A stretch of 34,493 nucleotides of DNA from a virus (IMGVR_UViG_2698536450_000021:1-34493), one strand, 5' to 3'; positions 19,082 through 23,727 are shown, counted from the stretch's first letter. The notes: generated by a model not told the origin, from the sequence alone. Numbers and translations are program-made.

Positions 19082-20478
19082 GCACAAAATTTTATACCCT
19101 GCTGACGGATATTGGCGCGGCGAAACTTGCCAGCGCCGCCGCGCTCGGTGTGCCTTTAAAAATTACCCATATGGCGGTCGGCGATGGCGGCGGAACATTG
19201 CCAACGCCGGACGCAAAGCAGACAGCATTAGTAAATGAGAAACGCCGGGCTGCGCTGAATATGCTTTATATCGACCCGCAGAACAGCAGCCAGATTATTG
19301 CTGAACAGGTGATCCCTGAAAACGAGGGCGGTTGGTGGATACGTGAAGTGGGCCTGTTTGATGAGTCCGGGGCATTGATTGCCGTGGGCAACTGCCCGGA
19401 AAGCTATAAGCCGCAACTGGCTGAAGGCAGCGGGCGCACCCAGACCGTGCGCATGGTGCTGATTACCAGCAGTACGGACAATATCACCCTGAAAATCGAC
19501 CCTGCTGTAGTGCTGGCAACCCGTAAATACGTGGATGATGAAGTCCTGGAATTAAAGCTGTATGTGGATGACCAGATGAGAAACCACATTGCCGCACAAG
19601 ATCCTCATACCCAGTATGCGCAGAAACATAATCCGACATTTACCGGAGAACCAAAAGCGCCGACGCCTGCAGCAGGAAATAACACCACGCGGATTGCGAC
19701 CACTGAGTTTGTTCAGGCCGCTATTACTGCTCTGATTAACGGTGCGCCAGCCACGCTGGACACACTGAAAGAAATTGCCGCAGCCATTAACAATGACCCG
19801 AAATTCAGTACCACCATTAACAATGCGCTGGCACTAAAAGCGCCGCTGTCGAGTCCGGCACTCACCGGAACGCCAACAGCACCTACTGCGGCGCAGTCGG
19901 TCAACAATACACAGATTGCCACTACGGCTTTTGTGAAATCGGCGATTGCAGGAATGGTGGGTTCTGCACCTGCGGCACTGGATACACTGAACGAACTGGC
20001 GGCGGCACTGGGGAATGATCCGAACTTTGCCACGACAATGCTTAATGCGCTGGCAGGTAAACAACCGCTGGACAATACGCTTACCAATTTGAGCGGAAAG
20101 GATGTATCTGGTCTTCTCACATACCTTGGTTTGGGAGAAGCGGCCAAATTGCCTGCGATTAGTGGCTCTTTATCATCATCTGGCTGGATAAAAATCCCTG
20201 TTATAGAGGGGAAGTCTTTTATTATCCAATGGGGAAGAATCGGACCTTCTGATAGTAAAACTGGTGTTGCAACAGGAAGTTATCCTATTGCTTTTCCAAA
20301 TTCTGCATTTATGGCATTTATTGCTGAAAAAACCGCAGTATCCACAGGCCCAATAGGTATTAATTCCTGGGGAGTGTCCGAACTAACAAAAACAGAATTA
20401 AAGGCCATTTGTGCTGCAAGGACTATATCAACTTCAGCCGCAACTGAAACAGGTGATTTTCTGGTACTGGGATATTGA
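19078..20478 (+). CDS. tail fibre protein H (constant N-terminal part joined to variable C-terminal cassette A at the 26-bp crossover site)
   Basis: 466 aa; repeated AxxxxDT and collar-type tail-fibre motifs; C-terminal segment from 20140 is duplicated in inverted orientation at 23363-23701. Confidence 0.9.
   Translation: MSTKFYTLLTDIGAAKLASAAALGVPLKITHMAVGDGGGTLPTPDAKQTALVNEKRRAALNMLYIDPQNSSQIIAEQVIPENEGGWWIREVGLFDESGALIAVGNCPESYKPQLAEGSGRTQTVRMVLITSSTDNITLKIDPAVVLATRKYVDDEVLELKLYVDDQMRNHIAAQDPHTQYAQKHNPTFTGEPKAPTPAAGNNTTRIATTEFVQAAITALINGAPATLDTLKEIAAAINNDPKFSTTINNALALKAPLSSPALTGTPTAPTAAQSVNNTQIATTAFVKSAIAGMVGSAPAALDTLNELAAALGNDPNFATTMLNALAGKQPLDNTLTNLSGKDVSGLLTYLGLGEAAKLPAISGSLSSSGWIKIPVIEGKSFIIQWGRIGPSDSKTGVATGSYPIAFPNSAFMAFIAEKTAVSTGPIGINSWGVSELTKTELKAICAARTISTSAATETGDFLVLGY
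19457..20139. repeat. 683-bp direct repeat, copy 1 (H middle region including crossover site 1); copy 2 at 21139-21821
   Basis: Checked at the start, a middle stretch and the end: identical at a constant offset of 1682 bp. Confidence 0.85.
20114..20139. repeat. gix/hix-like 26-bp invertase crossover site 1 (TTCTCACATACC TT GGTTTGGGAGAA)
   Basis: Imperfect 12-2-12 palindrome resembling hix/gix sites; sits exactly where H sequence changes from unique to inverted-repeat copy. Confidence 0.6.
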
Positions 20479-21137
20479 GCTTCCATAAGGATTATAAAAT
20501 GTCGAGCATAATATACTACAGCTCTATAAATAATGCATTTTACCCTGAGCATTTGAAACAAGAATATATTAAATCTAATTCTTTTCCAGCAGATGCAAAA
20601 CCCGTTAAATATTCTGTTTTCGAAGAATTTGCACTTAAACCAGCACCAGAAGGAAAATACAGGTGCGTTGGTGAAGATGGAATGCCATCATGGGCAGATA
20701 TTCCACCACCAACACATGAGGAACAGATTGCCGCAGCCGAATTGAAAAAGCAGCAATTGATTAACCAGGTCAACGAATACATGAACAGTAAACAATGGCC
20801 CGGTAAAGCGGCTATTGGTCGTCTGAAAGGTGAGGAACTGGCGCAATATAATTTGTGGCTGGATTATCTGGACGCACTGGAACTGGTTGATACCTCCAGT
20901 GCTCCAGATATTGAATGGCCTACGCCTCCGGCAGTTCAGGCCAGATGACATCCGGCGCGGTGCTGGTATCTGTTGCCGTCACCGCGTCAATGTAATCCAG
21001 CACGGCGTTAAGTCGGGTGTTTTCTGTCTGCGTCAGCTTCCGCCCGGCCTGTAATTTCAGTTGAATCAGACTGATAGAAGCCATTGCAGCATCAATCAGC
21101 GACTGGCGCTGTGCTTCTGCCGCTTCTACTGCGGCGC
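20140..21137. repeat. 998-bp perfect inverted repeat, left arm (variable H cassette A + Tfa-A + inverted 3' fragment of Tfa-B); partner at 22704-23701
   Basis: Paired coordinates sum to 43841; identical ORF translations appear on opposite strands in the track (e.g. 20475-20948 + and 22893-23366 -). Confidence 0.9.
20499..20948 (+). CDS. tail fibre assembly chaperone, Tfa-A (P2 gpG / Mu U-like)
   Basis: ATG at 20499 after AAGGA; conserved C-terminal Tfa block; follows the fibre gene. Confidence 0.8.
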   Translation: MSSIIYYSSINNAFYPEHLKQEYIKSNSFPADAKPVKYSVFEEFALKPAPEGKYRCVGEDGMPSWADIPPPTHEEQIAAAELKKQQLINQVNEYMNSKQWPGKAAIGRLKGEELAQYNLWLDYLDALELVDTSSAPDIEWPTPPAVQAR

Positions 21138-21138
21138 A

Positions 21139-21821
21139 TGCTGATTACCAGCAGTACGGACAATATCACCCTGAAAATCGACCCTGCTGTAGTGCTGGCA
21201 ACCCGTAAATACGTGGATGATGAAGTCCTGGAATTAAAGCTGTATGTGGATGACCAGATGAGAAACCACATTGCCGCACAAGATCCTCATACCCAGTATG
21301 CGCAGAAACATAATCCGACATTTACCGGAGAACCAAAAGCGCCGACGCCTGCAGCAGGAAATAACACCACGCGGATTGCGACCACTGAGTTTGTTCAGGC
21401 CGCTATTACTGCTCTGATTAACGGTGCGCCAGCCACGCTGGACACACTGAAAGAAATTGCCGCAGCCATTAACAATGACCCGAAATTCAGTACCACCATT
21501 AACAATGCGCTGGCACTAAAAGCGCCGCTGTCGAGTCCGGCACTCACCGGAACGCCAACAGCACCTACTGCGGCGCAGTCGGTCAACAATACACAGATTG
21601 CCACTACGGCTTTTGTGAAATCGGCGATTGCAGGAATGGTGGGTTCTGCACCTGCGGCACTGGATACACTGAACGAACTGGCGGCGGCACTGGGGAATGA
21701 TCCGAACTTTGCCACGACAATGCTTAATGCGCTGGCAGGTAAACAACCGCTGGACAATACGCTTACCAATTTGAGCGGAAAGGATGTATCTGGTCTTCTC
21801 ACATACCTTGGTTTGGGAGAA
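21139..21821. repeat. 683-bp direct repeat, copy 2 (truncated duplicate of the H middle region, ending in crossover site 3)
   Basis: Identical to 19457-20139; junction with the upstream inverted-repeat arm at 21131-21143. Confidence 0.85.
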
Positions 21822-22319
21822 GGTTCGGCATTACCCGTTGGTGTGCCTGTTCCGTGGCCTTCCGCCACTCCGCCAACAGGCTGGCTGAAATGCAACGGTG
21901 CAGCATTTTCTGCTGAAGAATACCCGGAACTGGCAAAGGCTTACCCGACAAATAAATTGCCTGATTTACGTGGTGAGTTTATTCGTGGCTGGGATGACGG
22001 ACGTGGTATGGATACGGGGAGGGCAATATTATCAGCTCAGGGCGATGCCATACGTAATATCTATGGTGAGTTCAGAACTGTAAACACTGAAAATTATTCA
22101 ATATGGGAAACAGCAGGCTCGTTTAAGGGGGCCATAGTGCCATTGAGTCCCTCTACAAACAATAGTTATTTCTCCTTAACCAGAAGTATGGTGACAGAAA
22201 GAGCAGACGGCGCTGTTTACCCAAAAGTGATTGGCCTTGATGCTTCAAGAATTGTTCCAACTGCAAACGAAAATCGACCCCGTAACATTGCCTTTAATTA
22301 TATCGTGAGGGCTGCCTGA
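21139..22319 (+). CDS. promoterless alternative tail-fibre cassette: duplicated H middle segment fused to a distinct C-terminal domain (cassette B)
   Basis: In-frame continuation through site 3 into a different C-terminus (GSALPVGVPVPWPSATPPTGWLKCNGAAFSAEEYPELA...), a collar/receptor-binding-type tail-fibre end; lacks the H N-terminus, so probably silent in this configuration. Confidence 0.55.
21796..21821. repeat. gix/hix-like crossover site 3 (identical to site 1, direct orientation)
   Basis: Same 26 bp as 20114-20139; sequence diverges from the H copy immediately after it (variable cassette B). Confidence 0.6.
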
Positions 22320-22921: not shown

Positions 22922-23342
22922 GCCATTCAATATCTGGAGCACTGGAGGTATCAACCAGTTCCAGTGCGTCCAGATAATCCAGCCACAAATTATATTGCGC
23001 CAGTTCCTCACCTTTCAGACGACCAATAGCCGCTTTACCGGGCCATTGTTTACTGTTCATGTATTCGTTGACCTGGTTAATCAATTGCTGCTTTTTCAAT
23101 TCGGCTGCGGCAATCTGTTCCTCATGTGTTGGTGGTGGAATATCTGCCCATGATGGCATTCCATCTTCACCAACGCACCTGTATTTTCCTTCTGGTGCTG
23201 GTTTAAGTGCAAATTCTTCGAAAACAGAATATTTAACGGGTTTTGCATCTGCTGGAAAAGAATTAGATTTAATATATTCTTGTTTCAAATGCTCAGGGTA
23301 AAATGCATTATTTATAGAGCTGTAGTATATTATGCTCGACAT
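22893..23342 (-). CDS. tail fibre assembly chaperone, Tfa-A' (identical inverted copy of Tfa-A)
   Basis: Track ORF 22893-23366 (-) translates identically to 20475-20948 (+). Confidence 0.8.
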   Translation of the reverse strand: MSSIIYYSSINNAFYPEHLKQEYIKSNSFPADAKPVKYSVFEEFALKPAPEGKYRCVGEDGMPSWADIPPPTHEEQIAAAELKKQQLINQVNEYMNSKQWPGKAAIGRLKGEELAQYNLWLDYLDALELVDTSSAPDIEWPTPPAVQAR

Positions 23343-23362
23343 TTTATAATCCTTATGGAAGC

Positions 23363-23701
23363 TCAATATCCCAGTACCAGAAAATCACCTGTTTCAGTTG
23401 CGGCTGAAGTTGATATAGTCCTTGCAGCACAAATGGCCTTTAATTCTGTTTTTGTTAGTTCGGACACTCCCCAGGAATTAATACCTATTGGGCCTGTGGA
23501 TACTGCGGTTTTTTCAGCAATAAATGCCATAAATGCAGAATTTGGAAAAGCAATAGGATAACTTCCTGTTGCAACACCAGTTTTACTATCAGAAGGTCCG
23601 ATTCTTCCCCATTGGATAATAAAAGACTTCCCCTCTATAACAGGGATTTTTATCCAGCCAGATGATGATAAAGAGCCACTAATCGCAGGCAATTTGGCCG
23701 C
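23363..23701 (-). CDS. inverted copy of variable tail-fibre C-terminal cassette A (start-less cassette that would be fused to H after inversion)
   Basis: Track ORF 23363-23755 (-) translates to the same C-terminal 113 aa as H (AAKLPAISGSL...FLVLGY). Confidence 0.7.
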   Translation of the reverse strand, partial: AAKLPAISGSLSSSGWIKIPVIEGKSFIIQWGRIGPSDSKTGVATGSYPIAFPNSAFMAFIAEKTAVSTGPIGINSWGVSELTKTELKAICAARTISTSAATETGDFLVLGY

Positions 23702-23727
23702 TTCTCCCAAACCAACGTTTAAGAAAA
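23702..23727. repeat. gix/hix-like crossover site 2 (inverted relative to sites 1 and 3)
   Basis: TTCTCCCAAACC AA CGTTTAAGAAAA; its inner half-site is the reverse complement of the inner half of site 1; lies 55 bp upstream of the invertase start. Confidence 0.55.

Follow-up and report, generated by a model that had tools for sequence, protein, structure and literature searches.

DNA inversion switches of phage tail fibres are represented by Gin and the G segment of Mu, Cin and the C segment of P1, and Pin and the P segment of e14, and the locus described herein appears to work in the same way as these three. The C segment of P1 is flanked by inverted repeats of about 0.6 kb, and plasmid p15B harbors Min, a multi-site inversion system. 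In P2-like prophages of enteropathogenic Escherichia coli (EPEC), inversion of such segments within clonal cultures has been demonstrated by sequencing and polymerase chain reaction (PCR) (Goldberg et al. 2014, PMC4272514), and one P2-like module of EPEC E2348/69 possesses three sites and occurs in four variants (PMC4272514). Herein, a related switch is described that is located downstream of the constant part of the tail-fibre gene H in a viral DNA of 34,493 nucleotides (IMGVR_UViG_2698536450_000021:1-34493), the whole of which is termed the window.

Judged from its sequence, the locus is a canonical inversion switch of a known kind, the Gin family, carried by a P2-like (Peduoviridae) prophage of E. 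coli, and in the window the stretch 19457-21138 is repeated in tandem. The window consists of the canonical element plus 1,682 bp, with the proximal copy in the orientation that displays fibre cassette A (A-on) and the distal copy in the orientation that displays cassette B (B-on). A tandem repeat with a flipped distal copy accounts for a third crossover site, a direct repeat of 684 bp, and an inverted repeat of 1,012 bp, and the 1-kb inverted repeat is thus best regarded as a by-product of the duplication and not as the normal architecture of the element. As for the origin of the extra copy, a probability of roughly 0.55 is assigned to an assembly artefact absent from the DNA of the cell, in which the overlapping ends of a circular contig from a mixed-orientation culture were joined without trimming.

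Layout of the locus

The order of the parts is the constant part of H, site s1, cassette A with tfaA and an inverted 3' end of tfaB, the junction at 21138, a partial second constant part (H'), site s2, cassette B with tfaB, the inverted tfaA' and A', site s3, and the invertase gene. These features are listed below with their lengths in amino acids (aa), and together with the repeats they lie far beyond chance.

19078-20478, plus strand: H in the A-on state, 466 aa, with the constant part at 19078-20113 and the A-specific C-terminus at 20141-20478
20114-20139, plus strand: site s1, TTCTCACATACC-TT-GGTTTGGGAGAA, inside H and coding for LLTYLGLGE
20499-20948, plus strand: tfaA, assembly chaperone of fibre A, 149 aa, with an alternative TTG start at 20475
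20920-21137, minus strand: extra 3' end of tfaB, cut at the duplication junction; the inverted-repeat arm stops at 21137
21138, no strand: duplication junction, ...GCGGCGC-A-TGCTGATT..., with one base matching neither parent
21139-21795, plus strand: H', the 5'-truncated second constant part of H, beginning at codon 127
21796-21821, plus strand: site s2, with the same sequence and the same orientation as s1
21822-22319, plus strand: cassette B, the alternative C-terminus of H (Pfam Collar, 2.9e-15), here fused to the truncated H'
22319-22921, plus strand: tfaB, assembly chaperone of fibre B, 200 aa (Caudo_TAP, 5.6e-32; PHROG 105, 3e-98)
22893-23342, minus strand: tfaA', second copy of tfaA in the native silent position, inside the exact inverted repeat
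23363-23701, minus strand: silent cassette A' in its native position, within an open reading frame (ORF) of 130 aa at 23363-23755
23702-23727, minus strand: site s3, reading TTCTCCCAAACC-AA-CGTTTAAGAAAA on the plus strand, 55 bp upstream of the start codon of the invertase
23783-24349, plus strand: serine DNA invertase of the Gin family, 188 aa
23804-23867, no strand: putative recombinational enhancer, two G-N13-C patches inside the invertase gene

An earlier note on this DNA had assigned the locus to the Gin/Pin/Cin/Hin-type switches of alternative tail-fibre C-termini in a P2-like prophage, and this family assignment is right. The copies of cassette A and tfaA that it placed at both ends in opposite orientation are seen in the ORF map as well. 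The two bounding sites that it named, 20114-20139 and 23702-23727, are indeed 26 bp long and inverted, with a third site, s2, lying unnoticed between them.

The alternative C-terminal cassettes lie inside the segment with their own chaperones, and the constant N-terminal part of the fibre lies outside. In H-A, the Pfam domain Phage_tail_fib, an N-terminal fibre domain of the P2 type, occupies residues 1-150 (2.5e-65) and Gp53-like_C residues 381-466. The product of tfaA matches Caudo_TAP (1.8e-35) and PHROG 188, and tfaA is annotated as a 149-aa gene in relatives. Cassette B belongs, in the canonical B-on loci, to an H-B protein of 519 aa. The genes tfaB and tfaA' converge with an overlap of 29 bp; the comparison with Mu made in the earlier note holds for the convergence and fails for the overlap, since U and U' of Mu converge without one. 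In the extra 3' end of tfaB, a 54-aa ORF (20920-21084) corresponds to the C-terminus of TfaB. No NCBIfam match was obtained for the fibre proteins, and those of the invertase were all below threshold. A promoter scan returned no more sites than shuffled sequence, and terminator-like matches were present, many of them doubled in the repeat copies.

The native segment in near-identical relatives

Ten near-identical loci of E. coli prophages from public genomes were compared with the window. Four of them (L001-L004) are A-on, with the order H-A, tfaA, tfaB on the minus strand, a silent B' on the minus strand, and the invertase, and six (L005-L010) are B-on, with H-B (519 aa), tfaB, tfaA on the minus strand, a silent A' on the minus strand, and the invertase. 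Exactly two sites are present in each of the nine loci that cover the whole segment; the contig of L004 ends inside the segment and shows one. All canonical loci also carry site s1. At least 55 blocks of public assemblies contain the exact 466-aa H-A protein, and at least 68 contain the exact 130-aa ORF of silent A', the latter always in canonical B-on loci. By these sequences, the native invertible segment measures about 1.9 kb, is bounded by two sites, and contains one A cassette and one B cassette.

The starts of H and of the invertase gene lie 3,023 bp apart in the canonical loci, whereas 4,705 bp separate them in the window, so that the spacing exceeds the canonical one by exactly 1,682 bp. 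Identity of the window to L001 and L002 amounts to 99.8-99.96%, and along L001 the window runs colinearly through 1-8067, continues with 6380-7063, then with 8956-7046 in inverted orientation, and resumes from 8942 onward. The same arrangement results if 19457-21138 is duplicated in tandem in an A-on chromosome and the stretch between s2 and s3 is then inverted. When one copy of the direct repeat was removed in silico, a canonical B-on locus was restored whose H-B is identical to that of L005 and whose DNA differs from that of L005 at 11 of 3,600 positions.

Both orientations, which the earlier note had proposed to look for, were found among public genomes of near-identical prophages. In L002 (GCA_040813075.1) and L008 (GCA_040813095.1), flanks of 4,683 bp and 3,683 bp are 100% identical and a segment of 2,688 bp is inverted, with the breakpoints inside the 26-bp sites. 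The outer half-sites keep their positions and the inner ones do not differ, which is the pattern predicted by exchange at the central dinucleotide. Judged from these genomes of relatives, the segment evidently inverts in nature. An IS1 element interrupts tfaB in both loci (8363-9060 in L002 and 8355-9052 in L008), which differ in segment orientation alone; fibre B can probably not be assembled in this lineage, yet the segment still flips.

Repeats, junction, and the truncated H'

A repeat finder returned the inverted-repeat arms 20114-21137 and 22704-23727. The perfect inverted repeat of 998 bp given in the earlier note does exist as a long repeat, and its exact length by a base-by-base check is 1,012 bp (20126-21137 against 22704-23715). 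The exact direct repeat of 684 bp (19457-20140 and 21139-21822, spaced by 1,682 bp), overlooked in that note, consists of the 5'-truncated second copy of the constant part of H together with s2.

At the junction, the left parent would run on as GCGC-TATGCTGTG, and in the right parent the breakpoint follows GCGCATGG. Action of the invertase at a secondary gix-like site was considered as a source of the junction and rejected, since both parents show 9 of 18 mismatches to the consensus, the random expectation. The exact junction of 32 nucleotides had no contiguous match in IMG/VR, the GTDB representative genomes, or the JGI metagenomes, nor did megablast return one across 5,426 complete E. coli genomes; the source record may lie outside these collections, and the result means that no other searched genome shares the junction.

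The unmatched A at 21138 creates an ATG (21138-21140) in frame with the truncated H'-B ORF (393 aa). This start is probably coincidental, because no Shine-Dalgarno sequence is visible upstream. H' keeps just the last 28 residues of the Phage_tail_fib domain, and H'-B is unlikely to be a functional fibre, since it has no N-terminal baseplate-binding domain and no recognisable Shine-Dalgarno sequence before the junction ATG. Exact look-ups of the H'-B ORF with three alternative start codons returned nothing on record.

Crossover sites, invertase, and putative enhancer

Each site is composed of two 12-bp half-sites around a 2-bp core, and s1 and s3 stand inverted at the segment ends. The reverse complement of s3 is TTTTCTTAAACG-TT-GGTTTGGGAGAA, so that s1 and s3 match at 21 of 26 positions and differ solely in the outer half-site (TTCTCACATACC vs TTTTCTTAAACG). 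A comparison with known gix sites, suggested in the earlier note, showed that the half-sites fit TTnTCnnAAACC, as does Mu gix (TTCCTGTAAACC-GA-GGTTTTGGATAA). In the window, s1, s2, and s3 are the sole matches with at most three mismatches to this consensus, each having one mismatch. Cassette A is joined to H, and cassette B to H', at the same 15 nucleotides, TTGGTTTGGGAGAAG (20126-20140 and 21808-21822), and the presence of both switch states side by side thus places the exchange point within 15 nucleotides that include the central TT.

The serine invertase gene recognised in the earlier note is present at 23783-24349, with an N-terminal catalytic Resolvase domain (2.3e-52) and a C-terminal HTH_7 domain (1.5e-15) in Pfam. 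Its product aligns without gaps to the Mu Gin structures 3UJ3 and 4M6F over residues 1-183 (E=6e-91). Identity to Mu Gin is 75% across 182 aa, and among PHROG families the product matches DNA invertase (6e-100). In the alignment to Gin, residues S9, K46, K47, R50, H106, M114, Q150, R153, and L154 (Gin numbering) are kept. Ser9 is the nucleophile, and mutation of H106 or M114 yields a Fis-independent Gin (PMC3575834). Residues Q151, R154, and L155 of Hin, in helix 1 of the DNA-binding domain, and the basic residues at Hin 47, 48, and 51 are found only in invertases that depend on Fis and the enhancer (PMC3798978). Such dependence is also predicted for the present switch.

A recombinational enhancer may lie in the 5' coding region of the invertase gene. 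Across 79 non-identical invertase genes, taken from the window and the fetched loci with Mu gin included, synonymous diversity is 0.40 in codons 1-35 vs 0.60 elsewhere (Mann-Whitney P=6e-7), and codons 9-12 and 25-27 form near-invariant patches. The two patches, GTGTCAACAAATGAC (23804-23818) and GCGCGGGATGTGAGC (23853-23867), have centres 49 bp apart, at distances of 96.5 bp and 145.5 bp from the s3 centre. The same G-N13-C motifs occur in Mu gin at the same distances, and for hin a distance of about 100 bp between the proximal Fis site and hixL has been reported (PMC3798978). The intragenic enhancer thereby has good indirect support short of proof, and effects of 5' codon usage may be an alternative cause of the reduced diversity.

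In the proposed mechanism, the invertase, presumably with the aid of Fis at the enhancer, would pair the site inside H with the inverted site that precedes the invertase gene. Cleavage at the central TT/AA dinucleotide would then flip the segment of about 1.9 kb, so that H would end either in cassette A with tfaA (466 aa) or in cassette B with tfaB (519 aa), and the swapped C-terminus would be expected to change receptor specificity.

Behaviour of three sites

The isomers available to a three-site locus were simulated on the real sequence with cuts at the central dinucleotide. Exactly four isomers were obtained, arranged in the cycle S0-S1-S3-S2-S0. In S0 (the window), S1, and S2, H-A is followed by tfaA, and S3 alone carries the 519-aa H-B followed by tfaB. 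From the state of the window, fibre B would consequently be reached by two successive inversions or by loss of the duplicate. Gin-type enzymes strongly disfavour deletion. With s1 and s2 pointing the same way, the duplicate would therefore be lost mostly through RecA acting on the 684-bp repeats. The four isomers offer two alternative C-termini, H-A and H-B, and not more. Because just two distinct C-termini are available, the locus does not qualify functionally as a multi-site system like Min or the EPEC module.

Origin of the extra copy

The anatomy of the locus, its family membership, the natural inversion in relatives, and the composition of the window as the canonical element plus 1,682 bp are counted as established, and the readings weighed here concern the way in which the extra copy arose. 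Either origin requires both orientations in the sequenced material or in recent ancestry.

In the favored reading, that of an untrimmed assembly overlap, a circular long-read contig would have begun in B-on reads and finished in A-on reads. The contig ends would agree colinearly for 684 bp, as far as the site, and differ from there on, and could then not be merged; the overlap would have been left untrimmed, the ends concatenated, and the record later rotated. Such an artefact explains why the direct repeat stops exactly at a site, why the join is made without homology, and why the window, compared with its relatives over more than 12 kb, shows its sole indel at the junction.

Assembly breaks at switches of this kind are systematic and likewise favor the artefact. 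In 23 of 79 related loci, drawn from species-representative genomes with a Gin-like invertase, a contig stops 60-270 bp upstream of this gene. Such broken loci include L011, L027, L043, L044, and about 19 more, and several of the contigs (715-1,268 bp) contain the invertase gene alone.

A further observation on the same side was made in NZ_CP148326.1, the record of E. coli Z1323HEC0475, which is labelled complete and circular and begins exactly at the s1 crossover point (L102, 1-120, starting GGTATGTGAGAA). The other end of this record (L103, 14830-14951) consists of DNA upstream of clpS without a half-site, and the invertible segment, the invertase, the remaining tail genes, and about 30 kb of host DNA are not adjacent across the record origin. 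Misassembly at the switch is one explanation of this record, and a large-scale rearrangement is the other.

Several points weigh against the assembly overlap. The reading draws on indirect evidence and on rough base-rate estimates, and the assembly is otherwise clean, with no other indels relative to the relatives. The junction is internal to the window, and an artefact therefore also needs rotation of the record after closure. In addition, the short similarity of the breakpoints (TGCTG and GCGC..ATG..CTG) also fits a real duplication mediated by microhomology, and the source record may lie outside the searched collections, which would weaken the argument from the uniqueness of the junction.

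A real duplication is a serious, if tentatively held, alternative. A microhomology-mediated tandem copy of 1,682 bp would have arisen in an A-on chromosome and would have been followed by a flip between s2 and s3, generating a switch with three sites and four isomers, which RecA-mediated recombination of the 684-bp direct repeats would return to the canonical form. One illegitimate recombination and one programmed inversion rebuild the window with the exception of one nucleotide, and the simulation yields exactly four isomers with an intact H-A or H-B. The sequence is otherwise error-free relative to the relatives, and the three-site, four-variant P2-like module of EPEC, verified by PCR (PMC4272514), demonstrates that such an architecture is viable. 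The breakpoints also share a short GCGC(T)ATG(GTG)CTG, which stays within chance (P=0.06 and 0.14, neither significant), and the junction is imprecise and was found in no second genome searched. None of the 79 related loci surveyed carries a three-site module, and no other of 83 related loci of at least 5 kb shows three sites or direct and inverted repeats paired in a comparable way. Moreover, a fixed and perfectly identical copy of 1.7 kb exactly at a locus where assemblies fail is unlikely a priori, and H', without the N-terminal baseplate-binding domain or a visible ribosome-binding site, brings no apparent benefit. The more specific picture of a binary Gin-type switch caught just after gaining a third site, and thereby turned into a four-isomer switch, is offered with a shade more doubt.

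The reading of the earlier note, in which the 3.6-kb segment 20114-23727 is the native unit, carries identical end cassettes by design, and switches host range by inversion between its outer sites, is very improbable: the outer sites are inverted with perfect arms, the P1 C segment is likewise flanked by long inverted repeats, and L023 has 213-bp inverted repeats at its segment ends, but the ten near-identical loci have the shorter segment with one cassette of each kind, the simulated inversion of s1 with s3 puts cassette A back on H and leaves the fibre unchanged, and the truncated second constant part of H and the third site are left unexplained.

Two repeats of a similar appearance were noticed in the survey. 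L023 (Siccibacter colletis) carries its 213-bp inverted repeats at 4821-5033 and 6714-6926 with 99.5% identity, reminiscent of P1, and L089 (a Sodalis metagenome-assembled genome) carries a 774-bp inverted repeat (4740-5511 and 6894-7659, 98% identity) whose second arm extends into the invertase gene.

Comparison with known systems

The closest functional counterpart is the G segment of Mu. The two systems share, besides the 75% identity of the invertases, the residues S9, H106, and M114, sites of 26 bp, and the same half-site consensus. Mu gix lies 54 bp upstream of gin, and s3 lies 55 bp upstream of the present invertase. In both, two conserved patches occur in the 5' coding region of the invertase gene, the constant N-terminal part of the fibre is outside the segment, and two convergent pairs of cassette and tfa gene are inside. 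On the other hand, the present switch resides in a P2-like phage, its core is TT/AA where that of Mu is GA/TC, and its left and right outer half-sites differ (21 of 26 matches) whereas the Mu sites are identical. The overlap of the tfa genes is likewise peculiar to the present locus, and the native segment is about 1.9 kb here vs about 3 kb in Mu.

Modules with the order I, H, tfa, tfa' on the minus strand, a silent cassette on the minus strand, DNA invertase, and sheath occur in other Peduoviridae. Escherichia phage 500465-1 (Wadgaonvirus) and Klebsiella phage Kp4845-2 share 91-92% nucleotide identity with the window, and the former, which is among the closest named relatives, has the same gene order at 91% identity. 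Compared with these canonical modules, the window alone carries the additional 1,682 bp, together with a third site and long repeats in direct and inverted orientation.

If the duplication is real, the locus would resemble the EPEC module in having three partly homologous sites and four isomers, each convertible into two others. The EPEC module, in contrast, provides three different C-termini, and the present locus provides two, with three of the four isomers giving the same fibre, because the third site belongs to a duplicated and truncated H.

The late-gene order V-W-J-I-H-tfa ... FI-FII-E-T-U-D is shared with P2. In contrast to the fixed H/G pair of P2, in which fun(Z) lies directly upstream of FI, a silent cassette and the invertase gene occupy this interval here; the module thus sits between the fibre genes and FI, in the very slot where the earlier note had put it with reference to Z/fun. 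Shufflons, the Rci systems of IncI plasmids, also combine several inversion sites with alternative C-termini of an adhesin-like protein. This assignment was rejected, since a shufflon needs a tyrosine recombinase with sfx-type sites and the present enzyme is of the serine type with a Resolvase domain.

Prophage context

The prophage is assigned to the Peduoviridae (P2-like) on account of its P2 late-gene order, a replication protein with the Phage_GPA domain, and an ogr-type gene, and the nearest named phages are Peduoviridae too. The genes run in the order R-S-V-W-J-I-H ... sheath-tube-E-T-U-D. Positions of the genes mentioned in this section are as follows.

685-1614, plus strand: Dam-type D12 methylase gene, upstream of the reverse transcriptase gene
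1611-4025: P2-type replication gene A (Phage_GPA, 1e-127)
4892-6832, plus strand: reverse transcriptase, 646 aa (PADLOC RT-Toprim_I-C, 2e-217; Pfam RVT_1, 3e-31)
15633-16568, minus strand: FRG-domain protein, 311 aa (PADLOC candidate PDC-S15, 8.5e-32)
24492-25664: sheath gene FI, downstream of the module
31716-31794, minus strand: small RNA RybB, 105 bits, the sole Rfam match
31874-33559, minus strand: host gene ybjL, an antiporter with Asp-Al_Ex and TrkA_C domains
33829-34206, plus strand: host gene ybjM

The right flank corresponds to ybjL-ybjM-grxA of E. coli at 99.6% identity, with an ogr/Delta-like gene beside ybjL, and the prophage thus appears to be integrated immediately beside rybB. 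The reverse transcriptase gene lies between replication gene A and the portal and terminase genes, a classic cargo hotspot of P2, and its 646-aa product is most readily read as an effector fusion of an Ec67-like type I-C retron; no Rfam match to a retron msr/msd RNA was obtained at the gathering threshold. The FRG-domain gene lies between tail gene S and baseplate gene V, and in L003, L006, and L010 a gene for a 289-aa DUF2971 protein is found at the same position, so that the S-V gap looks like a second swappable slot for cargo or defence in this phage lineage.

Significance

The switch itself adds nothing new, as Gin-type fibre inversion in P2-like E. coli prophages is already found in the annotation of reference phage genomes and has been experimentally demonstrated (PMC4272514). 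The main value of the locus is a cautionary one, namely that the closing of mixed-orientation assemblies can create long perfect inverted repeats and extra sites that may be mistaken for design. Should the duplication be genuine, expression would be biased to fibre A, which is specified by three of the four isomers, with two inversions separating the present state from fibre B. In that case, the window would also provide a snapshot of the birth of multi-site modules such as Min of p15B and the three-site prophage of EPEC, and would represent a naturally occurring step between inversion systems with two sites and those with several.

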